This document shows, piece by piece, positions 11,230 through 59,761 of a stretch of 64,000 nucleotides of DNA. Source of the DNA: an uncultured delta proteobacterium (GTDB lineage: Bacteria > Desulfobacterota > Binatia > DP-6); assembly GCA_963713495.1 (NCBI GenBank), contig CAVQLX010000006.1, positions 59,747 to 123,746 on the forward strand. The letters are read 5' to 3'. A model generated the notes under the pieces. That model was not told the origin of the DNA. It did no database searches and saw nothing but the letters and a program-made list of their open reading frames with translations. How positions within the stretch are numbered: position 1 is the stretch's first letter; each line of letters opens with the position of its first letter. The translations under genes were made by a program, and so were the position numbers.

Positions 11230-11943
11230 GCAGCTATGCCACGAAACGCAGGGGTCGTCTCCATCGTGACGCGTTGCGGAACCGCAAGCATGCTCCTCGT
11301 GAAACGCCAGAGCGAGTCTCTCGGGGTCAACCCGTCGCACTCCTTGCTCACGCCCGCTCCCACCCGAGGGCGTCACCGGCGTGCCTTCGCGGACGCCGCA
11401 CCGTTACGCTTGAGCTCCGCCCACAATGCCTGCGCGACCACGCCGTGCGCCCGGTCACGACGCCGCATCGCGAACAGCTCCATCACCTCGATCTCGAACT
11501 CCGGGACCTGAAGGCGCACCACGGTCCTTGACGCCAGCGCGTCGGCGACGACGTGCTCGTGGAGCCGCCCCAGGGCATCCCGGCCAGGATCACGTCCCGC
11601 TTCGCGGTCACGGCGGTCACGGTCCAGCGCAACGCCGCCCTCGAGCACGTTCAGCGACGGCGACGCTGGGTCGTGCGCGCTGTCGCGCAGGACGATCTGC
11701 GGGTGCGGGCGCAGCAGCGCCGGCGGGATGGCCGTGCCGCCGGTGTCGGCGGACGATCGGGCGCGCAAGGGCGGACGTGCACGCGCTGAGCGACAGTCTC
11801 GGCTTGCGCCGCGCCGAGCTGGTCGCGACACGGCATCCGCCCGCTCGTCGCGCAGCGCATCCACCGCGCCGGCCAGCCGCTCGGTCGAGAGCTCGATGCG
11901 GCACCGCGGGAAAGCGCTCCTGCACCACGCGCAGGATGGTCAT
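11230..11943 (-). pseudogene. LysR-family regulator remnant: substrate-binding domain only, no HTH, frame-disrupted
   Basis: Minus-strand pieces MTILRVVQERFP / RIELSTERLAGAVDALRDERADA / VRLQVPEFEIEVMELFAM resemble the LysR co-inducer-binding domain. No N-terminal wHTH is found upstream. Confidence 0.35.
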
Positions 11944-12000
11944 GATCGGACCGACGGGTGTGTGTCATCCGCACGCCGCTCGTCGGCGACGGCGCCGATG

Positions 12001-12138
12001 ACATGGCGGCGGTCCACCCGCTCGGACGCATCGGCGAGGTGGGAGAGACGTCCGACGCCGTGCTCTACCTTGCGCGCGCGGCGTTCGTCACCGGAACGAC
12101 GCTCGCCGTGGACGGAGGATATTCCCGTGGGCGCTGAG
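12001..12138 (+). pseudogene. Orphan C-terminal tail of a short-chain dehydrogenase
   Basis: MAAVHPLGRIGEVGETSDAVLYLARAAFVTGTTLAVDGGYSRGR* is the canonical SDR C-terminus. No upstream Rossmann portion is present. Confidence 0.4.
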
Positions 12139-12146
12139 GCGTCCGC

Positions 12147-13115
12147 TCACTCGAGGAGCCGCATGTGTCCCTCGTCGTTCAGCGTCTTCGCGAACGACGG
12201 CTCGTACGCGAGCTCCGGCGCCTGGCGGACCAACCGGTCGAGAGCCTGCGCATCCTGTCCGACCAGCACGCGCCAGGTGTCGGTGCGGACGCCCTCGAGG
12301 ATCGTCGACGCCGCCTGCGCCGCCGAGGTCGGTGCATGATCGCGAAAGGCGAGCGCCATCTGGTGCATCGCGGCGCGAAGCTGGTCGTCGGTCATGGCAT
12401 CCGCCGGGAGGCCGCGCCGGACCAGCATCGCACGGATCGTCGCGACGTCCTCGGCCGATGCGGACAGCGCATCGGCTTTGCCGAGCACCTTGGGCGAGTT
12501 GAGCAGGATCGACGTCCCGACGTGTCCGGGCATGACCAGCACGGCCTTCACGTGCGGGGCGTTCAGCCGCAGGTCGGTGATCAGGGCCTCGGTGAACCCC
12601 TTCACGGCGAACTTGGCGCTGCTGTACGCCGTGTGCGACACGCTCGGCCCGAGCGACGCCCAGAATCCGTTCACGCTGCTGGTGTTGATGATGCAGCCCT
12701 CGTCGCTGGCGACGAGCAAGGGCAAGAAGGCCCGCGCACAGTAGTACACGCCGGACCAGCAGACGTTGAACGTGCGCTCCCACTCGGCGCGGTCGCCGTT
12801 CACGAAGCTCCCGCCTCCGCCGATCCCGGCGTTGTTGAAGAGCAGGTTGATGTGCTTGGTCGCGTGCGCCGTCACGACCGCGTCGCGAAACGCCAGCACC
12901 TGGGCCTCGACGGACACGTCGCACGCGTGGGTCGTGACCCGTGCGCCGGCGCAGGCCACGCCTTCGGCCAGACGCTTCGTCTCGCTCATGTTCTCGGTCG
13001 AGACGTCGCAGATCGCCACGTGACAACCCTCGGCGGCGAGCTGCGTGGTGAGCTCGCGTCCCATTCCCGTGCCGCCGCCGGTGACGACGGCCAGTTTCCC
13101 GCGGAAGGTCTTCAT
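12147..13115 (-). CDS. Short-chain dehydrogenase/reductase (SDR) family oxidoreductase
   Basis: [21 protein letters not shown] (TGxxxGxG) ... NNAG ... S-Y-K triad region YSSAKFAV. Confidence 0.8.
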
Positions 13116-13170
13116 GCTTGCCGGCACATAGCGGGCCCTGCGCGTCGCTGTCCAGTCGCGCAGGTCGGTC

Positions 13171-14637
13171 CTAGGTGACACGTCCCGCAGCGCGATCCCC
13201 AGCGCATCGGCGACGCCTTCGCCGTAGGCGGGATCGGCCTGGGTGCAGTTGGCGATGTGACGCCGCTGGATCGCCTCCGGCGCACCGTTGATGGCCCGCG
13301 CGGTGTTCTCGAACAGGGCCTGCTGCTGTTCCGCGCGTCATCAGGCGGAACAGGTTGCCGGGCTGCGAATAGTAGTCGCGTCGTCCTCGCGGTAGTTGCA
13401 ACGATCGGCACCGCCCGCCACCGCCGAGCGCCGGCTCGCGGTAGGCGGGCTGCTCCTGCCACCCGCCGTAGCTGTTCGGCTCGTTGCCCAGCGTGCCGCC
13501 CTGGTTGCCGTCGACGCGCATCGCACCGTCGCGGTGGTAGCTGTTCACCGGGCACCGCGCGTGCGTTCACCGGGATCTGATGGTGGTTGACCCCGAGGCG
13601 GTACCGCTGCGCGTCGCCGTAGCGAGAACAGCCGACCCTGCAGCATCTTGTCGGGCGAGAAACCGATGCCCGGGCACGACGTTGGCCGGGTTGAAGGCGG
13701 CCTGCTCGACCTCGGCGAAGTAGTTGTCGGGATTGCGGTTGAGCTCCCACTCGCCGACCTCGATCAGCGGGTAGTCCTTCTGCGGCCACACCTTGGTGAG
13801 GTCGAACGGGTGGTACGGGACCTTCGCGGCCTCGGCCTCGGGCATGATCTGGACGTACAGCTTCCACTTCGGGAAGTCGCCGCGCTCGATGCTCTCGTAC
13901 AGATCGCGCTGGTGGCTCTCGCGGTCCTTGCCGATGAGCGCCTCGGCCTCGGCGTCGGTGAGGTTCTTGATGCCCTGCTGCGACGTGAAGTGGAACTTGA
14001 CCCAGAAGCGCTCGCCCTTCGCGTTGATGAAGCTGAAGGTGTGCGACGCCGAAGCCGTGCATGTGGCGGTACGAAGCCGGGAATGCCGCGGTCGGACATG
14101 ACGATCGTGACCTGGTGCAGCGACTCGGGCAGCTTGGTCCAGAAGTCCCAGTTGTTCTCGGCGCTGCGCAGGTTGGTGCGCGGGTCGCGCTTCACCGCGT
14201 GGTTGAGGTCGGGGAACTTCAGCGGGTCGCGGAAGAAGAAGACCGGGGTGTTGTTGCCGACGAGGTCCCAGTTGCCCTCCTCGGTGTAGAACTTCACCGC
14301 GAAGCCACGGATGTCCCGCTCGGCGTCGGCCGCACCGCGTTCGCCCGCGACGGTGGAGAAGCGAGCGAACATCTCCGTCTTCTTGCCGACCTGCGGAGAA
14401 GATGCTTCGCCCAGGTGTAGCGCGTGATGTCGTTGGTGACGGTGAAGGTCCCGTAGGCGCCGGAACCCTTGGCGTGCATCCGACGCTCCGGGATGACCTC
14501 GCGGTCGAAGTGCGCGAGCTTCTCCAGGAACCAGACGTCCTGCAGCAGCATCGGGCCCGGGGGCCGGCGGTGAGCACGTTCTGGTTGTCGACCACGGGGC
14601 AGCCGACGCTCGTGGTCAGCTTCTTCTTCTCGCCCAT
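13171..14637 (-). CDS. katA: Monofunctional haem catalase (clade 3, KatA-like), interrupted by four or more single-base frameshifts
   Basis: Consecutive catalase blocks lie in different frames: [29 protein letters not shown] / [39 protein letters not shown] / [43 protein letters not shown] / [19 protein letters not shown]...[18 protein letters not shown] / [14 protein letters not shown] / [17 protein letters not shown]. Each piece is near-consensus. Confidence 0.85.
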
Positions 14638-14679
14638 GTGACTCTCCTCTCGAGCGACGCGATTTCGGTCCTGCGCCGA

Positions 14680-15987
14680 TCAGCCTGGAAGCGGACCGGT
14701 GGCGCGACCGGCGCGCGTGTCCGCGGGGATGGCGGGAAGCTGCATCCTGCGCCGTCCGAGGATGAGCAGCCGCTCGAGCCACGTGAGATCGTTCGGCGGG
14801 ACCTTGGGAATGACGTGGTACCGGACGCGAACCTCCCCGTCGGCCTCGGTGAGCTCGAAGTAGTTGAGCTGGTATGACGGGACGTAGACACCGGGGAGGC
14901 GGCCGATCCGGACCGGCACGTAGTCGAGCCGTTTGAGCCAGGTCCCCGTGTTGATCACGTAGCGCCCGTCGACCTCGCGCAGGGACGGGATGTGCGTGTG
15001 CCCGTACACGAACAGGACCACCGACGGATCCGCGGCGAAGATCTCCCTGGCGGCCGCGATGTACTGGGCGTCCTTCTCGAGATGCAGATTCTCACCCCTG
15101 CTCACCCCGTAGCGGGCGATCGCCGCGCGCGTGTCCCGCAGCAGGAAGTACAGCGGCACGGACAGGAGCAGCAGGGTGGCGATGACTGTGCTGTTCACGA
15201 ACTGGACCAGGTCGATGAGGCGACCGGGGAAGCCCAGGATCGGCTGCAGGTCGATGTCGAAGACGGGTGTTTGCCGCCCGAGCAGGCGCTCGAGCGTCCG
15301 GATGCCGAAGACGACCGCGCTCGCGGAGAAGAGCAGGAGGAAGGGAAGCAGGCCCCAGCGGAGGACCGGCGCCATCTCCTTGTAGAAGTGGTTCGACAGC
15401 GCCCAGAACGGGATGTCCTCGTTCGGATACACCGACTCCACGTCGTCGAGCCATCGGGCCTTCGCGCGCTCGGCGCTCCGCCCGGCCGCGGCGACGACGC
15501 CGCTCGTGATGAAGTACCCGAGCGGGAGGCCGTAGCGGTTGCCGAAGTCGGGGAAGCGATTGAAGGCGTCGTACTGATTGCCGTGCTCGATCCAGACCGT
15601 GTGGCCCGCGATCGTCCGGGTGATGTGCACCACGGGCTCGAGGTGGATGTTGTATCGCGCGAGCTCGGTTCGGTACGCCGGCACGCAGGCCAGGTCGTAG
15701 TCGTGGTTTCCGGGCAGCAGCGTGATCGTCACGCGCTCGCCGGTCTCGCGAAACTGGCGGAACAGCGCGGGACACATGGCGGCGATTCGCTCCAGCTTGG
15801 ACGGACCCTCGCGATCGGTCAGCTCCCAGAATCCGAAGGCATCGCCCACGATGATGAGCTCGGCGGGCTGGGGCCCGACGGCGATCTCCGCGAGGAAGGC
15901 GACGAGCTCAGGCTCGAAGTCGCAGCGAGCGAGTCCCCCGTCGCCTCCGATGTGCAGGTCACTGATGAGGTAGTAGGTCGTCGCCAT
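14680..15987 (-). CDS. Membrane-associated metallophosphoesterase (calcineurin-like)
   Basis: Starts [18 protein letters not shown]; motifs GDAFGFWE and LPGNHD; central hydrophobic segments ([33 protein letters not shown]); C-terminal YGHTH. Confidence 0.75.
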
Positions 15988-16313
15988 CGACGCTGCGCTC
16001 AGGGTGAGGCGCGAGGCTATCCCAGAACGCGGGACGCTCAAAAGAGCGCGCGCGGACGGGACGACTCCCTCGCCGCGCCGAGCTGCGCTACTATTTCGGG
16101 TAGCGGCTGTTACCGGCTCGGGGCCCTCGGCGAGACGGCCACCTCGTCGGCTCGGGCCACGCGACAGCGTGACGCTCTGGATGGTGCCGGGGATGGCTGC
16201 GCGCCTCGCGCGGATCCAAAGGGGACGACGTCTCGCAACGATCCACCGGCCGGGCCTTGGCCCGGGGGAAATCCCATCGGACTCAATGAAAAAGGCTTGC
16301 AGTTCGCGCGTGA

Positions 16314-16410: not shown

Positions 16411-18808
16411 GTGAAACGATCGCTCTGCTCAATCCTGGCGCTTGGTGTTCTCGCCGCGGTCCCCGCAATGGCTTCGGACCTTGCGCGGTACGTCCTGCCG
16501 CCCGGCAACTTCGGCGGCGTACCGTTCACCGTCAACTCCACGGACCAGCTTCCGCTCTACTCCGGTCTCAGCCCGCTGCGTGACAACATCACGGCGGCCG
16601 ATATCGACCACTTCTACCTTCCCGAGGACTTCACGCCGATCGAGCCGTCGCACGAGGAAGCGACCGGGCGGCCTGGACTTCGCCTCGTCTACGACGCGTA
16701 CGGCATCCCGCACGTCTATGGCCAGACCCGGGCGGACGTCGCGTTCGGGGCCGGATGGACCACGGCGCGCGACCGCGGGCTCCTGATCCAGATCGGCCGC
16801 GGCCCCGCGCGCGTCGCCGTCGCCGACGTGCCCAACATCGACGCCTTCTCGCTGGTGACCAGCCTCCAGACGTTCACGCCGAGCGCGGCGGCCGAGGCCC
16901 TGGTGACGCAGCAGGCGCAGCTCCTGGTCGACGTGTACGGCGCGAAGGGGCAGGAGATCCTGAGCGATGCCCAGGCCTACGCCGACGGCATCAACGCCTA
17001 CTGGGCGGCGAACAACATGAACCAGGCGCCCGCGACCGTCAACGACGTCATCGCGGTCACGGCATTCATCGGGTCGATCTTCGGCGCCGGTGGCGGCGGC
17101 GAGGCGGCGAACTCCAACCTGCTCGCCAAGCTCGATCAGTCCCTCGGCGCGGACAGGGGCCACCAGGCATGGGTCGACGTCATGCTGGCCGACGACCCCG
17201 AGGCCCCGACCACGACCAAGCGAAAGTTCAAGTACCCGGCTGTTGACCGGTGGCCCGGTGACGGGCTCGGTGGTTCTCGATCCCGACTCCATCCAGAGCA
17301 TCGACCCGCGCCAGCCGGCCGCGGCGGCCGCCGCGGCACCCGCTCGCCGGCGCGCGTCGAACTTCCTGGTCGCGGCGCCGTCACGCTCGGCGTCGCACAA
17401 CTCGCTCGCCGTGATGGGTCCGCAGCTCGGCTACTACTACCCGGAGATCGTGCAGCAGATCGATCTCCACGGCCCCGGCATCAACGCGCAGGGCGCCGCC
17501 GTGCCCGGCCTCGCCATGTACATCCTCATCGGTCGCACGCCGGACTACGCGTGGAGCCTCACCTCCGCGGGACACGACGTGCGCGACGTGTACGCCGAGG
17601 AGCTCTGCGAGCCCGATTCCTCGGCGCCGACGCGGGCGTCGACGCACTACCTCTACAACGGCGTGTGTCAGGCCTTCGACATCTTCAACGCCGGCACGCT
17701 CGGCACCACGCCGCTGATCTATCCGGTCTCGGCGCACGGCCCCGTGTTCGCCACCGCCACCGTCGGCGGAAAGCCGTACGCCCTCTCGCGCCGTCGCTCG
17801 ACGTTCGGCCGCGACGCCCTCAACCTCGGGGCGCTGAAGGACATGACCGAGGGCCAGGCGTCCAGTCCGTCGCGGTTCTGGCGCGCCGCGAACCAGTTCG
17901 GGTTCACCTTCAACTGGGCATACGTGTCACGCAAGAAGACGGCCTACTTCTCCTCCGGCTACCTTCCGAAGCGTCCGCGCGGGCTCGATCGGCGGCTGCC
18001 GACGCTCGGAACGGGTCAGTACGAGTGGCAGGGGTTCCTGAGCCAGAAGAAGCATCCGCACGACGTGAACGGTCCCGGGGGCCTGCTGCTCAACTGGAAC
18101 AACCGCTCGGCGCCCGGGTTCATGCACGGAGACGACGAGCCCTACGGGTCCGTGCAGCGGGTGGAGATGTTCAACAAGTGGCCGCCGAGCCCGCAGATCA
18201 CCGACAACGTCGGCATCATGAATCGCGCCGCCACGCAGGACGTGCGCTCGCCCGTGTGGCCCGTCGTGAGCCGGGCCCTCCACATGAGTGCGGCCCCGAG
18301 CCCCCGCGACCAGCAGGTGGTGGACATCCTCGACGACTGGGTGGTCAATCGCGACGCCCCCCGTCTCGATGCGGACAACGACGGGTTCTACGACGAGGCC
18401 GGTCCGGTGATCATGGACGCGCTCTGGCGCCCGATCGCGAATGCGGTCATGTCGCCGGTGTTCGGCTCGCTCATCGGCGACCTGGACAACGTTCGCGACC
18501 TCGACGGCCTGGAGGGCGAGTCCTACGTGGACAAGGACCTCCGCACACTGCTGGGCGAGCCGGTGATCGGGCCGTTCAATCTTTCGTACTGTGGCCTCGG
18601 ATCGCTCATGCCGTGCGTCGACTCCCTGTGGCAGGCGGTCCACGCGACTGCCGACGCGCTCACCGCGCAGCAGGGTCAGGTGGACCCGAGCCTGTGGCGG
18701 AAGCCGGCGGCCCTTTCGGGCTTCGTGCCGGGACTGCTGCCGAACAAGTTCACCTTCACCAACCGGCCGACGTTCCAGCAGGTGCTGGAGTTCGACCGGC
18801 AGGGATAG
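16411..18808 (+). CDS. Penicillin-amidase-family Ntn hydrolase (penicillin/AHL acylase-like), with a GTG start and one frameshift near 17235
   Basis: Signal peptide (V)KRSLCSILALGVLAAVPAMA. The alpha-subunit ...YDAYGIPHVYGQTRADVAFGAGW; after the frame change the beta-subunit begins SNFLVAAP...(Ser nucleophile) and continues to the conserved C-terminus. Confidence 0.8.
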
Positions 18809-18817
18809 CGAGACCGC

Positions 18818-20284
18818 CTAGACACGCACGAAGTCGATGAAGCCGCGCTCCGGGTTCGTGTGCACGAGCCGCACGCGGACGCGGTCGCCGACGTCGAGCC
18901 CCTCCTGACCACGCTCGACGCGGCCCTCCACCGGCGGGTCGAACACGCGGACCCACGTGCCCTTGGCCGACGCGCCGGTCACGACGCCGTCGAACTGCTG
19001 GCCGATGCGGCTCGTCAGGAGACACGCGGCCGCAGCCTTCCGCACCATCCGCTCGACCTTCTGCGCGCCGTCCTCCTTGAGCGTGCATTCCGCGGCGAGC
19101 GCACCGAGCTCGTCCTTGGCGTACGGAATCTGCTCGCTCGCGAGCGCCGCGCGGACGAGGCGCTGGGTGACGAGATCCGGATAGCGCCGGTTCGGGGCGG
19201 TCGAGTGCGTGTACTCGCTCACCGCGAGTCCGAAGTGGCCGACGACCGCCTGCCCGGGAAAGCTCGCCACGTACTCGCCGCGTCCGAGCAGCTTGATGAT
19301 CGTCAGCGAGAGATCGGGAAAGCGGAGTGGATCGGCCGCGCGCCGCTTCAGCAGGAAGGCGTTCAGGGCAGGGGCGTCGGGCTCGCCGGGTAGCTGGCTC
19401 GCCGAACTCGCCGGCGAGCGCGACGATCCGTTCCCAGCGCTGGGGCGAGCGCACCACGCGGCGCAAGACGGGGAATCCCTGTGCTTCGAGGAAGCGCGCG
19501 ACGATCCCGTTGGCCGCGATCATGAAGTCCTCGATCAGGTTCTTGGCGCGGTTCGGCTTCTCGTCCGCGAGACGGCTGACGGTGTCGCCCTCGAACTCCG
19601 CGCGCACCTCCATGGTCTCCAGCTCGAGGGCTCCGTGGTCGTGGCGGTGCGCCTTCAGCCGTTGCGCCACGCCGTCCTGGAGCTTCAGGTTCTCCGCCAG
19701 CCCGGGAACGGCCGCGAGCGCGGGAGGCGGTGGGCCGTCGCCCTGCAGCCACGAGCCGACCGCATGGTATGCGAGCTTCGCGTGGTTGTGCACGACGGCG
19801 CGGTAGACCTTCGACTCCTGGCACACGCCGTCGTCGCCGACCGCGATCTCCGCCACCACCGCGAGGCGATCCTCGCCGGAATTGAGCGACGTCAGGTCGG
19901 TGCTCAACCGGTCGGGCAGCATCGGGAAGTTCCGCGGCGGCGTGTACACCGACGTGGTGTTGGTGCGGGCGTGTCGGTCGAGCGCGGACCCGCGGGCCAC
20001 CGTCGCGCTCACGTCCGCGACGGCCACGCGGATCGTCGTGCATCTCTCCTGCCGGGGCGTCCGCCACCGTGAGCTGGTCCAGATCGCGCGAGTCGTCGTT
20101 GTCGATCGAGCACCAGGGCAGCGCGCGCAGGTCGCGCTCGGCGCCGTCGCGCGGGCGCTGCGCCGGACAGGGCCCCGGCCTCGGCCAGGGCCGCGGGGGG
20201 GAAGTCGGGCTCGAGCCCGTGCTCGACCATCGCCTGCCGCGCGACGCGCAGAAGCAACGCGCGCTCGGATTCCCGGGCCGCCAT
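18818..20284 (-). CDS. RNase II/R-family 3'-5' exoribonuclease (RNB catalytic domain plus C-terminal S1-like domain, no N-terminal cold-shock domains), with two or more frameshifts
   Basis: LPWCSIDNDDSRDLDQLTVA (RNB start), NFPMLPDRLSTDLTSLNSGEDRLAV, HFGLAVSEYTHSTAPNRRYPDLVTQRLVRA (RNB motif IV), and the tail GTWVRVFDPPVEGRVER..VRVRLVHTNPERGFIDFVRV. The ATG at 20282-20284 overlaps the TGA of the upstream LOG gene. Confidence 0.7.
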
Positions 20285-21073
20285 CAGCAGTCCTCGTCGG
20301 GGCTCTCGCAGGTCCGGGAGCGAGCGAACGACGGTGCGGTGGTCGCGCTCTCGCTCCCGAGGGCGGCACGGAGCCGCGCGAGCGCTTCGGCCGGCGTGTC
20401 GACGAAGTCGAGCAACCCGAGGTCCTCCGTCGGCGATCATTCCGTGGCGCACGAGCGCGGGGAAGTTCACGATCTCCTGCCAGTAGCTCGGCCCGTAGAG
20501 GAGCGTCACGATCGGCCGGGCGAGCTTGCGCGTCTGGCAGAGGGTCAGGATCTCGAACAGCTCGTCGAGCGTGCCGAAGCCACCGGGAAAGACGATGATG
20601 GCGCGCGCCAGGTGCGCGAACCAGAGCTTGCGCATGAAGAAGTAGTGGAACTCGAACCCGAGTCCCGGCGTGATGTAAGGGTTCGGCCGCTGCTCGTTGG
20701 GGAGGCCGATGTTGAGCCCGATCGTGCGGCCGCCCGCGTCGGCCGCGCCGCGGTTGGCGGCCTCCATGATGCCGCCTCCGCCCCCGCTGCAGACGAGAAA
20801 GCGGCGCGCCGGCGACGCGATTCCGAGCGACCATTCGGTCACCAGGCGCGCGACCTCGCGCGCCTCGGCGTAGTAGCGCCCGAGGGGCCCGTCGGCGCGC
20901 ATCCGGGCCGACCCGAAGAACACGATCGTGTCGTGGACGCGCTCCCGCTCGAACGCGTGCAGGGGCTGGAGATACTCGGCGAGGATGCGCAGCGGCCGCG
21001 CGGCGTCGCTGTCGAGGAATGCCTCGTCCCGGTAGGCGAGCAGCGGATCGGTGGGCGTCATGGCGCGGGGCAT
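20284..21073 (-). CDS. LOG-family protein (TIGR00730-type nucleotide 5'-monophosphate nucleosidase-like), with a frameshift near its 3' end
   Basis: VFFGSARM...GGGGGIMEAANRGA..GGRTIGLNIGLPNEQRPNPY...PGGFGTLDELFEILTLCQTRK. The C-terminus EDLGLLDFVDTPAEALARLRAAL is recovered in the +1 frame. Confidence 0.7.
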
Positions 21074-21136
21074 GGTGACAGAGGAGCGCGCATATCGCCA
21101 AATGGGCGATGGGGCTCGGCCGTCGGCCCTCGACAA

Positions 21137-21165
21137 TTGTACCCGGACGATATTGCGTCTATATT
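21137..21165 (+). promoter_or_regulatory. Sigma-70-like promoter (TTGTAC, 17-bp spacer, TATATT) in an AT-rich divergent intergenic region upstream of the DUF2239 gene
   Basis: ttgtac ccggacgatattgcgtc tatatt. The local AT-rich patch is unusual in a ~70% GC window. Confidence 0.3.
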
Positions 21166-21186
21166 TTGCCCGGGTATTATAAGGGC

Positions 21187-21738
21187 ATGGACCCGGACAA
21201 GACGTTCACCGCGTTCGCCTCCGACCGCATCGTCGCCGCCGGGGCGATGGCCGACATGCTGCGCGCCGTGAAGCGGCACCTCGACCGCCACCCCGATGCA
21301 GGCGTGCTGATCTTCGACGACCAGACCGGGCAGCAGGTCGATTTCGACCTCCGCGGCCGGCTCGACGACGTGCTGGCACGCGAGACACCACCGGCCCCGG
21401 GTCCCGGCCGCCCCAGGCTGGGCGTGGTCTCGCGCGAGGTCTCGCTCTTGCCGCGTCACTGGGAGTGGCTCGAGCAGCAGCCCAACGGGATCTCCGCGGC
21501 GCTGCGCCGGATCGTCGACGAGGCGAGCAAGCGCAATCCCGACGCGCAACGAGCGCGCCGCGCCCGCGACGCGGCGAGCCGCGTCATGACGGCGCTGGCC
21601 GGCGACCGCCCGGGTTTCGAGGAAGCCTCGCGCGCACTGTTCGCCGGCGATCACGCCCGGCTCCAGTCGCTCACCCGCCGCTGGCCGATCGATCTGCGCC
21701 GTCACCTGGCCCGACTCCTCGGCATGCCATCGCCGTGA
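21187..21738 (+). CDS. DUF2239-family protein
   Basis: MDPDKTFTAFASDRIVAAGAMADMLRAVKRHLDRHPDAGVLIFDDQTGQQVDFDLRG...GRPRLGVVSREVSLLPRHWEWL is characteristic of DUF2239. Confidence 0.6.
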   Translation: MDPDKTFTAFASDRIVAAGAMADMLRAVKRHLDRHPDAGVLIFDDQTGQQVDFDLRGRLDDVLARETPPAPGPGRPRLGVVSREVSLLPRHWEWLEQQPNGISAALRRIVDEASKRNPDAQRARRARDAASRVMTALAGDRPGFEEASRALFAGDHARLQSLTRRWPIDLRRHLARLLGMPSP

Positions 21739-21840
21739 CCAGGCCTCTGGTAGTCGCCGCGGCATGCGGTCCGTCTCACCCTTGGCGGCACGCGTGCGGC
21801 TGCCTATGCTGCGCGCGTGTTTCCCGGAGGCCTTCGCGCG

Positions 21841-23316
21841 ATGGCGTACTGCCGGCCGGACAGCGTGCGCCCGGGCGACGAGGTGGCGCTGCATCTGTCC
21901 GCCGCCACGCCGACTGTCTCGGTGGAAGTCGTGCGCGACGGCCTCGAGTCCGAGGTGGTGTGGCGGGGAGCTGGCGTCGCGGCACCGGCGTTGCCGATTC
22001 CGGACGACGCTCCCGAGGCGGGATGCGGATGGCCGGCGGCGATCACCATTCCCGTGGACGCATCCTGGCGCAGCGGTCTCTACCTCGTGCGCCTCGTGCC
22101 CGCTGACATGACCGAGGCCGAGTCCCCGACGGCCTTCTTCGTCGTGCGCGCCGTGACCCCGTCGGCCGACGCCATCGTCCTCGTCCTCGCGACGACGACG
22201 TGGAACGCCTACAACGACGTCGGTGGCCGCAATTTCTACACCGGCGCGGTCGAGCTCTCGTTCGAGCGTCCTCTCTCCGTCGGCATGCTGGCGAAGCCGG
22301 CGGGGAGCGGCGAACGCGTGGCCACCATCGACGCGGGGACCGGTGCCGCGGCGTTCATGGAGTACACCGCGCGTCACGGCCTCGCGATGTGGCACGGCAT
22401 GGCGGGCTGGGCGGCGTGGGAGCGACGCTTCCTCCGCTGGGCCGAGGCCGCCGGCTATCGCATCGACGTCGCCACCAGCCTCGATCTCGATCGCGATCCG
22501 GATCTGCTCGTGCCCTATCGACTGCACGTGAGTGTCGGCCACGACGAATACTGGAGTGCCGGCATGCGCGACGCCGTCGAGCGCTTCGTCGCGCGAGGCG
22601 GTCACGTCGTGTTCTTCTCGGGCAACACCTGCTACTGGCAGATCCGCCTCGAGGACACGCGCGAGACCTGCTTCAAGCATCGCTTCCGCGACGACCCCGT
22701 CCACGGCACCGACCGTCGCGCGTCGACCACGACCATCTGGTCGGATCCCCAATTGGCGCGGCCCGAGAACCAGCTCACCGGGGTGTCCTTCACACGTGGC
22801 GGATACGCGCGGACGGCGCGGAGCGTGCCGGCAGGAAGCGGCGGCTACGAGGTCCATCGACCGGATCACTGGGTGTTCGGCGGCACCGGGCTACGCCGGG
22901 GTGATCAGCTGGGCGCTGCGCCGGTCGTCGTCGGTTACGAATGTGACGGCTGCGAGCTCGCGCTCGTCGATGGGCTCCCCGTGGCGACCGGCACCGACGG
23001 GACACCGCGGACGTTCGAGATTCTCGCCACCGCGCCGGCCACGCCGTTCGACCGGCGCACGACCCCGCTGCCCCTCGCGCCGGGTGCGGAGTACGAGCTC
23101 GAGTTCCATGCCCGCACCCTCCTTGGCGACGACGGCCCCGCGAGCTGCGATCGCCTACGCCATGGACACGCCGTGCTCGGCACCTACGTGGGCGGCGGGA
23201 CGGTGGTGACGACGGGGTGCACCGACTGGGCGTACGGCCTCGACGATCCCGCCGTATCGCGCGTCACGCGCAACGTCCTCGATCGTCTCGGCCGCGGACG
23301 TGGCAATGCTGGATGA
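21841..23316 (+). CDS. N,N-dimethylformamidase beta-subunit-like family protein (large conserved hypothetical)
   Basis: GGAGG lies 9 nt upstream of the ATG at 21841. Motifs LVLATTTWNAYNDVGG and FFSGNTCYWQIR are typical of this family. Confidence 0.5.
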   Translation: MAYCRPDSVRPGDEVALHLSAATPTVSVEVVRDGLESEVVWRGAGVAAPALPIPDDAPEAGCGWPAAITIPVDASWRSGLYLVRLVPADMTEAESPTAFFVVRAVTPSADAIVLVLATTTWNAYNDVGGRNFYTGAVELSFERPLSVGMLAKPAGSGERVATIDAGTGAAAFMEYTARHGLAMWHGMAGWAAWERRFLRWAEAAGYRIDVATSLDLDRDPDLLVPYRLHVSVGHDEYWSAGMRDAVERFVARGGHVVFFSGNTCYWQIRLEDTRETCFKHRFRDDPVHGTDRRASTTTIWSDPQLARPENQLTGVSFTRGGYARTARSVPAGSGGYEVHRPDHWVFGGTGLRRGDQLGAAPVVVGYECDGCELALVDGLPVATGTDGTPRTFEILATAPATPFDRRTTPLPLAPGAEYELEFHARTLLGDDGPASCDRLRHGHAVLGTYVGGGTVVTTGCTDWAYGLDDPAVSRVTRNVLDRLGRGRGNAG

Positions 23317-23523
23317 AGGCGGGCCTCACGCCAGCGCGACGCCGCTGCGGGCGAGAGCCTGTGCCAACTGGGGCCCGGACGACAAGGCATCACCGCCGTC
23401 GACGGCGGCACGTACACGCTCGATGGCGTGTGGGATGCCAGCGAGGCCCAGCTCCCACGCACTTCCGGCACCGCCACCCGACCCGGGAGGTTGCGGCGCG
23501 AGCAACCTCCCGGGGGGCGACGG

Positions 23524-24907
23524 CTAGAGCTGCTTCCTGAGCGTCTTCAGGTCGTCGAGAATCGGCCCGGCGTCCGCCAGCAGCGCCGCGCGGGTGTCCG
23601 CGGGGATGTTCTTGCGCGAGCGCAGCGACCGCAGGCGATGATCGAAGTCGATCAGCTTGCGGGCCGCTTTCTTGAGGGCGTTGCTGGCGGGCTTCTTCCG
23701 GCCAGCCGTGACGGAGTCATCGGCCGCCTGTGTCTTCGACCGTGCGGCCGCCACGCCGTTGCGCAGCGCGGTCTTGGTGGTGCCCAGGTCCGACGCCGCG
23801 TCGACCGTCGCCAGCAGCGCTTCCAGCCGGCAGATGATCGACGCGAAGGTGGCCGCCCGGACGCCGCACCCCGATGCCAGCGTCGTGGTCGTCGTGGTGC
23901 TGGTCGGGTGTCGTCGTGGTGGTGATCGTGGTCGTCGTGCTCGCGGTCGTCGATGGAGGCGGGAAGCCCGCGCCGCCGATCTGGACGATCGAGTTTGCTG
24001 GATCGCCGCGGAAGGTGGCGACGAAGAAGTCGTTGGTCCTGGGATCGAACTCGAGTCCCCATGGTCCGACGCCGAGTCCCGAGGCGAAGCGGCTGTCGGT
24101 GGGATTGGCAGTGCCGAGCGTCGGCAGTCCACTCGTCTTGTCCACCGGCAGACCGGTGGCGGCGTCGATGGTGAGCAGACGCACCTCGCCGAAGTTGTAG
24201 TTGACGTACATCAGGTTGCCCGCGAGCGGACCGGACGGAACGTACTGGATGGCCCCGGTCCCCTGCTGCGGCAGGGTCACGAACAGGGTCACGGCGCCGG
24301 GGGTGAAGATGCCCGCACCGGCGGACGTGAGCGGCACCTCGTAGAGGTTCGCACCTTGCCACGAGCTGACCTGCATCATCCCGAAGCCGGTTCCGGGATC
24401 GGTGCGGTGCGGGGAGAAGGTCATGCCCGCGACCGACGACGGAACGCCGACGGTCCCCATGTTGAACTGCGTCTCTGCGCCCGTGACCCCGCCCGGTCGC
24501 TCGCCGAGGCGATTGGACGACCAGTACGTGTAGAAGAGCGTCCCGCCCGGGCCGATCTCGAACCCGGCATCGAGACCGGGCGTGGCGGCCGTTCCGTCGA
24601 AGACCTTGGTCACCGCGGCGGCGGGACCGAGGCCCGTCACGTCGCCGGTCAGCGGGTCGCGTGTCACCGGAACTCCGTAGAGCGCGCTCGTCGGCGTTTC
24701 CGACGCGCCGACCACGTAGAGCAGGTTGCCATCCGCCGAGAAGAGGAGGCCGGCGAGTGGCCCCGGGATCCCGAGCGACGTCGCGCTGAAGGTGTTCTTC
24801 ACCTGGAAGTTGCCGGGGTCGTCCAGGGTGACGACGGCGAGGGCGGGGGCTGCGGCGGCGCAAATGGCGAAGGACAGGACCGCGCGGAGGGGGTGTGCAA
24901 TCGACAT
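23524..24907 (-). CDS. Secreted beta-rich protein, Thr-rich linker, then the shared helical C-terminal module (one frameshift in the linker)
   Basis: Signal peptide MSIAHPLRAVLSFAICAAAAPALA. The linker PPPSTTASTTTTITTTTTP is followed, after a frame change, by TTTTTTLASGCGVRAATFASIICRLEALLATV...GRKKPASNALKKAARKLIDFDHRLRSL...LKTLRKQL*. Confidence 0.6.
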
Positions 24908-25096
24908 CGTGTCTCCTCGTTCTGTCTGAGGGCCTGTGGGGGTATGCAGTACGCCAGAGCAGACGGCGAGGACAAGACAAATGAGGAGGCGTCGTGTCGC
25001 CGGGGCGACCCGGAGCCTCCCGGATCTCCACCTTCAGTATGAGTGCCGGGGCGGCCGCACTAGACTTTCCATCGAGAATCGCGTCTATCGAGCGAC

Positions 25097-30356: not shown

Positions 30357-32913
30357 TCATCCCGCGATGCGCGCGAGAACGCGCTTCGGCTCGCCGACGT
30401 TCATCTCGCCCGACCGGATGCGCACGAGTCCATCGTGGGTGGGGACCCACCCTGGCCGGGCGTCGAGCTCCTCCTCCGTCGCCCGCCGGACGAGAGGCCG
30501 GCCGTTCAGCGTGACGGCGGTCACCTCCGCGCCGCACGTGGCGAGCTCGATCACGGTATCCCGCCGGCCGGGGGCGCCCGCGTACGACCCGCGCACCGGC
30601 TCGATCGTGATCGCGATGCCGTCGTGCGTCCGTCGCTGCCGGACCGTGGTGGTGCGTACGGCGCCGCCGAGGTACGCCGTGGTCTCGCCGTCGTCCTCGT
30701 AGAGCGTGAAGCGGCTCCTGCTGCTCGACGAGGCCGGGTCGCCGGCATAGACGCGGACCGTCAGCTCGTCGCGAGGGGACCCGCCCCGACGTTTGCCGAG
30801 CGCGTTCAACGTGTCGTCGTCGACCGCCGCCTCGGGGATGATGGCGCCCGCGCGCGCGAAGAGCGGCACCGCGAAGAGCCCGCCGATCCGCGTCGGCACG
30901 CCGCGCACCCACTCCCCCGCACTGCGCGTGCAGGTGTTGGCGTGGAAGTCGATCCACGTGCCCGCCGGAAGGTACACGTCGCGCGACGCCTGGCCGTATG
31001 CGCTCACCGTCGCCACGAGCAGGTCGCGCCCGAGCAGCTTCTCGTCTGCCATCCGGCGCACCTCGGGATCGTCCGGGTAGGAGAGCGGAAGCGGCGGCAC
31101 AAGCGCGTCGCCGTAGCGATGCGCCCGGTGGGCCAGGGAGTACAGGTATGGGATCAGGCGGTAGCGCAGGCGGAGGTTCTCCCTGTTGCTCGCGACCTCG
31201 CCGATGCGATCGGGCGCCGTCTCGTTGCAGTTGCAGAGGTTCTGGGTGTGGGGGCGGAGCGGCACGTCGAGGAGGGCGGCGTTGGCGAACCAGACCGTGT
31301 ACATCTCGTTCAGGTCGCCATCGAGTGCGCTCCGCCAGTAGCCGCCGACGTCCGCTCCGAAGTAGTCGATTCCCGAGAAGGCCATGTGCATCTGCACGTC
31401 GAGCTGCGTCGCGAGGCTCGAGAGGTTCGAGCCGATGTCCCCCGACCACATGCCGGCACCGAAGCGCTGGATGCCGGCGGTCCCCGAGCGCGACAGCATG
31501 AACGGTCGTTGCGTGTCGTGGTGGCGCGCGTACCCGCGCGCGATGCTCGCGAGCCACTCCAGGTTGTACGCGTCGTGCACGTCCTGATGGGCGCGCAGCC
31601 CGAGCCGGGGGAACCCGTGGTAGCGGGCGTCGGGAGAGAAGTCCTCCGGCTCCCCGAGATCGGCCCAGTGACCGAGGATCCCCATCTCGACGAGGGGCTG
31701 GCGCTTCCGATCGTGCCAGTAGTTTCCCGCGGCGGGGTTGGTCCAGTCGAGCATGCTGCCGCTTCCCCACCACGAGGCGACGCGCACCGGGCCGCATCCG
31801 GCACACGCCTGCGGCAGATAGCCACGCGACGCGAGCGCCGCGAAATCGGGCCGGCTGGCATCGACGTACGGCTCCTCGATCAGCATCAGGCCGACGCCCT
31901 CGTTCCTGCGCAGTCGCGCGATCTCGCGCCTGGGACGCGGGAACGCGGTCGTATCCCACCTGAGCGCTCCCATGTGCGACGGCCGGCGGAACACGCCGCC
32001 GAACCACTGCAGATCGAGCATGAAGCCGTCGACCGGAAAGCGATTCGCACGCAGCGTGCGTAGCTTGTCCTCGAGCTCCGCCCAGCCGTCGAACCCGAAC
32101 TCCGACACCCAGAGACCGAACGCTTTCTTCGGCGGCACGGGCGGTCGGCCCACGAGACGCATGTAGCGGCGACGGAGCGCCGTGGGCGCCGCCCCGGCGA
32201 GCAGATACCCGCGGATGGCGTCGCCCGCCATCGTCACCCGCCAGGGATCGCCGGTGAGATCCCACGTCTGCGCGTCGAGCTGGTCGACGAACAGGGCGTA
32301 GCTCTCGCCCGCGCCGCCGAGGGCGTACAGGATCGGAAACTGCGCGTTCTCGGTGAAGCCGCCGTTGAACGGGGTGAGCGCGTTGCCCGCCTCGGTGCCG
32401 GGCGCGACGATCTTGCCGAGCAGGTCGCCGTTGGCGGTGCCGGGTGTCAGGAAGTGCTCCCCGAGGCCGTAGACGTGCTGCGTATCCGCCCGCGCCACCG
32501 CGAGGACGTTACGACCACCGCCGACGGCGGCCGGGCAGAGCGTGGTGACCGGGGAGGGCGGCTCGCGCGTCCGATCCGCCACGTCGAGGCACAGCGTCGT
32601 GGGATCGATCCGGAGGCGGAGGATCCCGGTGTCCAACGTGTCGGATCGGACGAGGCGCTTCGCTCCGCTGCGCCCCGGGTGCAGGACCATCGGCGTCGTG
32701 GGAATCCACGCGTCGCGGAGACGGCGGTTCGCCTCCGGGCGCGAACTCGAAGTGGATCACGCCGTCGTCGAGGACCTCGACGGCGACGTGCGCGTCGCGG
32801 GAGGCGACCGCGAGCACCGGCACGTCGTGTGCGGCCCCGGCGAGCGACGCGAGCCACGCCGGTGCGGAGACGATGAGAGCCAGCGCCGCGATCAGGGCGC
32901 GGTCGGTTGGCAT
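30357..32913 (-). CDS. Glycoside hydrolase family 31 (alpha-glucosidase/alpha-xylosidase-like), secreted, with one frameshift near 32700
   Basis: Signal peptide MPTDRALIAALALIVSAPAWLASLAGA in the 32913 frame. GH31 blocks DGFMLDLQWF, GVGLMLIEEPYV and GMWSGDIGSN. Confidence 0.8.
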
Positions 32914-59022: not shown

Positions 59023-59761
59023 TCACCCGACGATCGCCGAGGGCGGAACGGGCTCTCCGAACGCGCCGCGGTTCCACGACCGCAGAACGTCGCACGGCGA
59101 TCGGGGTCCAGGTGTCAGGGCTCGGATCGTGGCCACCCATCGGTCGAGCTGCTCGCGGAGATGGCGCTCGATGGGGAGCTGGTGGTCGGCGGGATGCCGA
59201 CCTCGCTCGCCAGCTGCTTCCAGCAGTTGCGCACGTGCCCGAACACGATCTCGCAATCCACCCCGCAGTCGCCGGCGCGCCGGAACGTCCGGCAGAGCGT
59301 GTGCTGGATCGCCAGCACCGGATCTCGACGTCCGCCGCGCCGTCGGGTGGGCCGCAACGACCCCGAACCTGTGCACGGCGCGTCGTGTCGCGAGGAGCTC
59401 GGATGCCGGGCATTGCCCACCGCCCGCGATGTCGTTGAGCAGGGTATTCTGCCACTGGACCAACCTCACGGTCGCGCCTCTCACGCTGCCGTTGCAGAGC
59501 GTCCCGGCACGCGCGAAGGTTCTGCTCCATCGCTGCGCTGGCCCGTGCGAGGCATGCCGGGTCTGCCGGGATGCCCCGCCGCTTCGCACGCGCATGACAG
59601 CGCAGGGTGGCGATCAGATCGCGGCCGGCGGCGCGGAGCTTCATGGCGCTGCACCGCGCGGGTGTGAGCTGAACCTCCGCCATCGACGGCCCGAGTGGAA
59701 GGAGAACGATGGAGACTGCGAGCAGTAGCGTTCGACACCGCCGAGGGTTTCGAGAGGGCAT
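59023..59761 (-). CDS. Secreted Cys-containing hypothetical protein (one frameshift)
   Basis: AGGAGG lies 7 nt upstream of the ATG. Signal peptide MPSRNPRRCRTLLLAVSIVLLPLGPSMA. The body is split between the 59761 and 59595 frames. Confidence 0.45.

Follow-up and report, generated by a model that had tools for sequence, protein, structure and literature searches.

A probable LOG-exoribonuclease operon in uncultured soil bacteria and its possible role in RNA turnover

Introduction

Exoribonucleases of the RNase II family release nucleoside 5'-monophosphates (NMPs). Proteins of the LOG and PpnN type, in turn, carry out the conversion of an NMP into ribose-5-phosphate and a free base (PMC6717881), so that what an RNase with an RNB domain releases belongs to the class of compounds that a LOG protein cleaves. 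Here, we describe a locus at which genes for these two kinds of protein overlap by a single base, namely, a LOG gene and a gene for a compact, RNase R-like RNB exoribonuclease. The locus lies in a 64,000-nucleotide stretch of DNA from an uncultured delta proteobacterium (GenBank assembly GCA_963713495.1, contig CAVQLX010000006.1, forward-strand positions 59,747 to 123,746). Hereafter, we refer to this whole stretch as the window and number its positions from 1.

The closest described systems fall into two groups. On the nucleotide side, PpnN is built of three domains in the order PAG1-MND-PAG2 (PMC6717881), and type-II LOGs are hexamers that hydrolyze AMP in vitro (PMC5379747). On the RNA side, the active site of the RNase II family has been described (PMC12320835), and in RNase II itself the Mg2+ ion is held jointly by D201 and D210. 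An earlier note on the window, made from the sequence alone, had drawn attention to the gene pair and suggested a functional link between its members, with a nucleotide-gated toxin as a plausible form. Both proteins are members of known superfamilies, and the analysis presented below suggests that the pair forms a small RNA-recycling operon, not a defense toxin.

Results

Three-frame translation placed both genes on the minus strand, where the LOG gene comes first and the RNB gene follows (Table 1). Across the junction, the minus strand reads ...GACGAGGACTGCTGATGGCG..., and the CTGATGG that the earlier note had described, with a TGA stop and an ATG start sharing one base, is therefore correct. 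A lone stop/start overlap is frequent in bacterial operons; it is the recurrence of the overlap in relatives that goes beyond chance.

We evaluated this recurrence by scanning RNB loci with one genome per GTDB species, which yielded 80 loci (L003-L082; 57-89% identity) that span Eisenbacteria-like metagenome-assembled genomes (MAGs), Myxococcota, Acidobacteriota, Chloroflexota, Verrucomicrobiota, Nitrospirota, Planctomycetota, and others. A tblastn search with the LOG protein found a LOG gene adjoining the RNB gene in 12 of these 80 loci. On the RNB tree, the order LOG→RNB occurs in most of the window's own clade (L002, L003, L004, L006, L009, L010, and L011), while the opposite order, RNB→LOG, occurs in a separate clade (L022, L040, L050, and L062) whose LOG proteins are 66-74% identical to that of the window. 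A third, divergent orientation was seen at L023, where the LOG is more distant. Context look-ups added four further LOG→RNB pairs (L084, L085, L086, and L087), and the contig that carries the homologue P0085 probably has the pair as well. Moreover, at least 19 LOG and RNB matches of the two protein searches were located on contigs of equal size, including contigs of 3-6 kb.

The coupling of the two genes recurs along with their adjacency. A stop/start overlap (TGATG, ATGA, or GTGA) was present in 13 of 15 pairs and in both gene orders: The TGATG junction of the window is found again in L002 and L084, and ATGA or GTGA overlaps are found in L003, L006, L010, L011, L085, L086, L087, L022, and L062. 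The flanking genes vary between loci while the pair stays together, and clustering of open reading frames (ORFs) over 81 loci revealed no third conserved gene beside it. The pair is thus kept together in many uncultured soil bacteria, and we are highly confident that a genuine conserved LOG-RNB operon exists. The cotranslated unit with a probable functional link that the earlier note had proposed is supported by the adjacency in two gene orders and clades, by the frequent overlaps, and by the varying flanks; the adjacency is conserved in relatives without being universal.

The LOG protein scored above the thresholds of its family, both in Pfam (PF03641, 2.7e-29, 102 bits versus a cutoff of 27) and in NCBIfam (TIGR00730, 103.4 bits versus a curated cutoff of 96.35), and it had a weak score on PF18306 (SLOG cluster4). 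Its closest sequences in the PDB are TT1465, 5ZI9, and Corynebacterium glutamicum LOGII (E = 8e-38 to 4e-35), and P0121, the nearest of its intact homologues, shares 99% identity with it. With motifs defined as in PMC5379747, we located the nucleotide-binding and catalytic PGGFGTLDE, the GGGGGIMEA, and the FFMRK with its predicted catalytic Arg. Since all three are kept, the protein is enzyme-like and not a degenerate sensor, the alternative that the earlier note had considered for the PGGxGTxxE site. The alignment to TT1465 and Cg1261 starts at query residues 12-18 and spans ARPLRILAEYL, and the N-terminal extension aligns with the helix region that serves hexamerization in type-II LOGs. Overall, the protein looks like a catalytically intact type-II LOG, i.e., a predicted nucleoside-5'-monophosphate phosphoribohydrolase that would be active in this organism. 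An assignment as PpnN was rejected: The NF038390 model matched the core only, at 23.9 bits versus a cutoff of 450, and because of this low score and the lack of PAG domains, the protein is not PpnN.

The RNB protein matched PF00773 over nearly the whole model (1.4e-78, model positions 2-325 of 326) and PF18614 (RNase_II_C_S1, 9e-22), while neither Pfam nor NCBIfam returned a match to a cold-shock domain (CSD). These matches and those of the LOG protein agree with the assignment in the earlier note of a LOG and a CSD-less RNB+S1 exoribonuclease. Only ~45 residues, with two predicted short helices, lie ahead of the RNB domain. Motif IV (HFGLAVSEYTHSTAPNRRYPDL) is intact, and its conserved Arg presumably corresponds to R500 of RNase II. 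Motif I retains three of the four Asp residues of RNase II, and the equivalent of D210 is a Gln, a residue that is shared by all 117 close homologues and by 81 of 82 distant 50%-cluster representatives.

The sequence aligns with residues 151-593 of E. coli RNase R, with E values of 1e-49 (5XGU) and 8e-35 (2ID0) against PDB sequences. An AlphaFold (AF2) model of the protein (pLDDT 79, pTM 0.82) matched the fold of E. coli RNase R best (5xgu, TMq 0.81), within a range of 0.81-0.83 for the E. coli and Mycoplasma genitalium RNase R structures. The match to DrII of Deinococcus radiodurans was lower (TMq 0.62; E = 1e-15 over part of the sequence). Being CSD-less, the protein can be grouped with the minimal RNB proteins (PMC5758563, PMC12320835), although it is distant from DrII given this TMq. 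Intact homologues that are 97% identical exist. We presume that the protein is an active exoribonuclease.

Two candidate assignments within the RNB family were tried and rejected. Identity with RNase R or RNase II was discarded because the scores fall under every curated equivalog cutoff (TIGR02063, 279 versus 598; TIGR02062, 125 versus 642; TIGR00358, 248 versus 369). Ten over-length RNB proteins that were candidates for LOG-RNB fusions contained no LOG domain. As a separate observation, identity of the compact RNB protein between very distant phyla reaches 57-71%; besides Chloroflexota, Acidobacteriota, Verrucomicrobiota, Planctomycetota, and Nitrospirota, the comparison includes Bacteroidota and a MAG labeled Methanocella. 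Such high identity across phyla, unusual for a nonribosomal protein, points either to strong constraint or to horizontal transfer at a high frequency.

Upstream of the pair, the LOG gene and a DUF2239 gene (Pfam match 5.5e-68) diverge from a common intergenic region, which is the presumed promoter region. The AT-rich, promoter-like patch of the earlier note holds as to composition (GC of 45-57% versus 69% for the window), but a scan for the sigma-70 consensus found no match in it. A 7-nt inverted repeat in this region, TACCCGG-N23-CCGGGTA, may be an operator. Terminator-like matches of the scan were confined to the LOG gene and the intergenic region, and shuffled sequence gave such matches at least as often. 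The divergence from DUF2239 that the earlier note had included is present in the window, but a place for DUF2239 in the system is not supported: Among the loci of relatives, it adjoins the pair in L002 only.

At the downstream end, a convergent penicillin amidase gene has its stop at 18806-18808, only 9 nt from the RNB stop at 18818-18820, and no terminator-like hairpin was found between the two stops (18806-18820). The region on the DUF2239 side is variable. In the relative L083, the GH31 gene (window 30363-32739) is located directly upstream of LOG, and the window segment 21108-30349 therefore represents ~9.2 kb of extra sequence, including DUF2239. Furthermore, a 1.3-kb GDSL-lipase segment of L002 (2566-3889) is swapped in the window for ~3.3 kb of different sequence (21740-25005), with both flanks of the swap remaining ~97.5% identical.

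Lastly, 9 of the 80 loci encode, no more than 7 kb away from the RNB gene, an uncharacterized protein of 126-160 aa (GLWIDHRKAVIV...FGPGEAKGELEKRL...DKMTDRQIAAKVR) that has no Pfam or PADLOC match. In three Ignavibacteria/Chloroflexi loci, its gene lies upstream of the RNB gene and shares its strand, at a distance of 65-581 nt from the RNB start.

Table 1. Positions of the features described in the text. Positions are those of the window unless another locus is named; inserted bases are relative to L002.
Feature	Position	Strand	Remarks
LOG gene (type-II; TIGR00730 / PF03641)	20284..21061	-	258 aa after removal of one inserted base
LOG start, ATG	21061	-	Alternative in-frame ATG at 21073 (the end coordinate used by the earlier note) gives 262 aa
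LOG GGGGGIMEA	20759-20785	-	
LOG FFMRK	20627-20641	-	Predicted catalytic Arg
LOG PGGFGTLDE	20561..20587	-	Nucleotide-binding and catalytic motif; carries the catalytic Glu
Extra base in LOG	~20431 (±2 nt)	-	Single base; shifts the frame
LOG C-terminal tail PSFARSRT	20311..20334	-	3' of the catalytic-domain coding sequence
GAGGA, Shine-Dalgarno-like	20291..20295	-	Within the LOG 3' end, 7 nt before the RNB ATG
LOG stop, TGA	20286-20284	-	
TGATG junction	20282..20286	-	Base 20284 common to LOG stop and RNB start
RNB gene (compact RNase R-like exoribonuclease)	18818..20284	-	487 aa after removal of three inserted bases
RNB start, ATG	20284-20282	-	
Extra base in RNB	~20156 (±2 nt)	-	Single base
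RNB motif I, IDNDDSRDLDQ	20074..20106	-	D201, D207, and D209 equivalents kept
Extra base in RNB	~20042 (±2 nt)	-	Single base
Extra base in RNB	~19401 (±2 nt)	-	Single base
RNB motif IV, HFGLA...APNRRY	19172..19237	-	Intact
C-terminal S1-type OB domain (PF18614)	18821..18994	-	
RNB stop, TAG	18820-18818	-	
LOG/DUF2239 intergenic region	21074..21186	.	Presumed promoter region (candidate)
Inverted repeat TACCCGG (21140) N23 CCGGGTA (21170)	21140-21176		Putative operator
DUF2239 gene	21187-21738		Divergent from LOG
Frame switches inside apparent genes	~6619, ~8382, ~9231, ~13334, ~17241, ~23909-23961, ~30114, ~32713, ~54693, ~54797, ~55281		
Deletion in L083 (JGI 3300056868, Ga0568855_0000032)	L083 6700-6850		Corresponds to window 18877-20281
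126-160 aa protein	L035 5450-5830; L063 5526-5930; L081 4998-5402		Six more loci

Discussion

Among the explanations that we considered, a module running from RNA via NMPs to ribose-5-phosphate and base is best supported, owing to the match between product and substrate and to the translational coupling that is conserved in two gene orders. According to this proposal, the compact RNase R-like enzyme would digest RNA in the 3'→5' direction to nucleoside 5'-monophosphates, and LOG would split the N-glycosidic bond of the released NMPs, yielding ribose-5-phosphate and the free base. The pair could in this way feed the products of RNA turnover either into salvage or into central carbon metabolism; alternatively, it could dispose of modified nucleotides. 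The gene structures, motifs, overlap, and conserved adjacency are observed; both activities and the biochemical link between them are predictions, and we give such a product-to-substrate coupling about even odds.

A number of observations weigh against the RNA-to-ribose-5-phosphate module. No LOG was found within 6 kb of the RNB gene in 68 of the 80 species-level loci, and most members of this RNase family thus work without an adjacent LOG; even inside the window's clade, L005, L007, and L008 are unpaired. A close relative, L083, whose LOG is intact and 91% identical, carries a clean in-frame deletion of nearly the whole RNB gene (Table 1). There, the locus still has the ATGA start overlap, and ATG-AGC is joined to the last 18 RNB codons (VRLVRTNPERGFIDFVRV, then the stop), after which the same convergent penicillin amidase gene follows as in the window. 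At least one population can therefore do without RNB. Among the 150 best 50%-cluster representatives, no fusion of LOG with RNB was present. On the enzymatic side, the Gln that the RNB family has at the Mg-binding D210 position means that the activity or kinetics of the protein may differ from those of RNase II/R. The density of frame breaks in the pair, addressed further below, points in the same direction.

Several of these facts are also what one would expect if the two were co-regulated but biochemically independent housekeeping genes, the main rival explanation. Here, a common promoter (responding, e.g., to starvation or stringent control) would serve both genes without any hand-over of a metabolite, and their adjacency would persist by inheritance and operon compaction. 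The prevalence of RNB loci without LOG, the loss of RNB while LOG stays, and the lack of fusions all fit this explanation, as does the fact that stop/start overlaps are frequent in compact high-GC operons. Yet, the genes stand in opposite orders in two RNB clades and, at a further locus, in a divergent arrangement, which argues for repeated selection of their juxtaposition. Nor does this explanation predict that the pair would stay together amid varying flanks or that product and substrate would match exactly. We therefore regard independence of the two genes as unlikely, though it remains a serious contender, and the same holds for inheritance and compaction as the reason for their adjacency.

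A different question is whether the pair is still functional in this particular genome, given that its frames are broken. The earlier note had reported disruptions in both genes, and these are indeed present in the sequence, one in LOG and three in RNB. We pinned them by comparison with L002, a JGI metagenome contig that is 97.6% identical over 2.9 kb and has both genes intact: The window differs by exactly four extra single bases, none of which is a homopolymer expansion, and their removal restores stop-free, full-length ORFs for LOG and RNB. If these were real mutations, the operon would be decaying and nonfunctional here. Such decay would agree with the clustering of four insertions within 2.25 kb (~0.8 would be expected from the window average) and with their absence from the neighboring 2-kb phospholipase C (PLC) gene and from DUF2239, as well as with the deletion of RNB in a close relative. 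However, each of the four breaks is a +1 insertion, and neither deletions nor stop codons nor larger lesions accompany them, whereas bacterial pseudogenes are usually deletion-biased. The substitutions relative to L002, moreover, are mainly synonymous (9 synonymous versus 4 nonsynonymous codon differences in LOG, 25 versus 18 in RNB), which is on these counts a pattern of purifying selection.

The same insertion-only pattern also occurs in other genes of the window. When the window was segmented from end to end by codon usage (Viterbi), about 17 further same-strand frame switches without a stop-codon explanation emerged, nearly all of them +1, including the ones inside apparent genes that are listed in Table 1. 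Comparison with relatives resolved two of these, at ~17241 in the penicillin amidase gene and at ~32713 in the GH31 gene, as insertions of one base outside homopolymers. Since the insertion-only +1 pattern runs through unrelated genes across the window, the four breaks in the pair are most probably technical single-base insertion errors and not gene decay, and a decaying operon seems to us quite improbable. Frameshifts are hence an error signature in this sequence, and other apparent pseudogenes of the window should not be taken as biology. As an aside, the segmentation broke up a long coding region on the minus strand, at 11385-16017, by numerous short frame switches. A large gene, or two of them, with several insertion errors could account for these switches, as could an unusual composition of the region.

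A variant of the coupling idea assigns the pair to modified RNA, as a route of RNA or tRNA degradation to free cytokinin-type bases or as a means of clearing modified nucleotides. The RNase would in this case release N6-modified AMPs such as isopentenyl-AMP, from which the coupled LOG would free the base. This proposal draws on the pairing itself and on the retained hydrophobic pocket residues of LOG; we know of no RNase that has been assigned to the pathway from tRNA to cytokinin, and we judge the variant distinctly improbable.

The two proteins might, alternatively, form a physical complex in which a hexameric LOG serves as a scaffold for the RNase or as its allosteric regulator, perhaps via the LOG C-terminal tail, with feedback from NMP levels onto RNA decay as one example. 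Translational coupling implies near-equimolar synthesis, PMC5379747 describes type-II LOGs as hexamers, and the tail extends past the catalytic domain as a sequence P[SA/D][FL]A[RHK][ST]xT(P) that is kept in RNB-paired LOGs of both gene orders (L002, L003, L006, L009-L011, L022, L050, L062, and L087), so that it might act as a putative docking peptide. Yet, the tail is also retained in L083, where RNB is deleted, and the representatives searched for fusions contained none. A complex, and likewise the feedback that it could mediate, thus appears very unlikely.

The nucleotide-gated toxin of the earlier note, in which a LOG/SLOG module would sense a nucleotide signal and gate a processive RNase effector, is not supported and is the least probable of these explanations. 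In its favor, some conflict systems do use SLOG domains for sensing, the two genes make up a variably present cassette with tight coupling, and LOG has its weak PF18306 score. On the other side, LOG retains all of its catalytic motifs, which match those of enzymatically active type-II LOGs exactly (PMC5379747), and identity across phyla is 57-74% for both proteins, in contrast to fast-evolving defense genes. In addition, most RNB family members stand alone, the neighbors are metabolic (penicillin amidase, glycoside hydrolases, PPK2, and TetR), the PADLOC defense models matched neither LOG, RNB, nor DUF2239, and the phage and plasmid collections held no close family members, only distant RNase R-type matches of at most 33% identity.

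If the coupling of RNA decay to NMP cleavage is real, then exonucleolytic RNA decay would be tied directly to the cleavage of the nucleotides that it releases. Type-II LOGs of bacteria would have a physiological role beyond plant-associated cytokinin production, and there would be a pointer to the function of the widespread, highly conserved compact RNB nucleases with a Gln in their metal-binding motif. The literature that we searched made no mention of a LOG-RNB operon or of the compact DLDQ-type RNB family, and a search on SLOG/RNB/LOG returned nothing relevant.

Compared with known systems, the LOG protein most closely resembles C. glutamicum Cg1261/CgLOGII (5WQ3), Thermus thermophilus TT1465 (1WEK), and 5ZI9, its best PDB matches. 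With C. glutamicum LOGII, it shares an identical PGGFGTLDE and the catalytic Arg and Glu (PMC5379747); it differs in its PSFARSRT tail and in having an exoribonuclease as operon partner, neither of which figures in the passages of the LOGII paper that were consulted. E. coli PpnN (YgdH), an NMP nucleosidase that is activated by ppGpp, has the Rossmann nucleosidase core and the chemistry from NMP to ribose-5-phosphate and base in common with it (PMC6717881), whereas the window LOG lacks the PAG1 and PAG2 (DUF4478/DUF3412) domains; PpnN is nonetheless a precedent that links NMP cleavage to stress physiology.

For the RNB protein, the nearest counterparts are RNase R of E. coli and M. genitalium and E. 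coli RNase II, with which it shares the RNB domain followed by a C-terminal S1 domain, the equivalents of D201, D207, and D209, and motif IV. Unlike these, it has no helix-turn-helix (HTH), CSD1, or CSD2, is only 487 aa long, and carries Gln at the D210 equivalent. D. radiodurans DrII (2R7D) and Haloferax volcanii RNase R are likewise compact and CSD-less (PMC5758563, PMC12320835), and the C-terminal S1 domain of DrII is also of the PF18614 type. The similarity to DrII is distant, however. DrII has an N-terminal HTH in place of the CSDs, and the N-terminus of the window protein is predicted to form two short helices.

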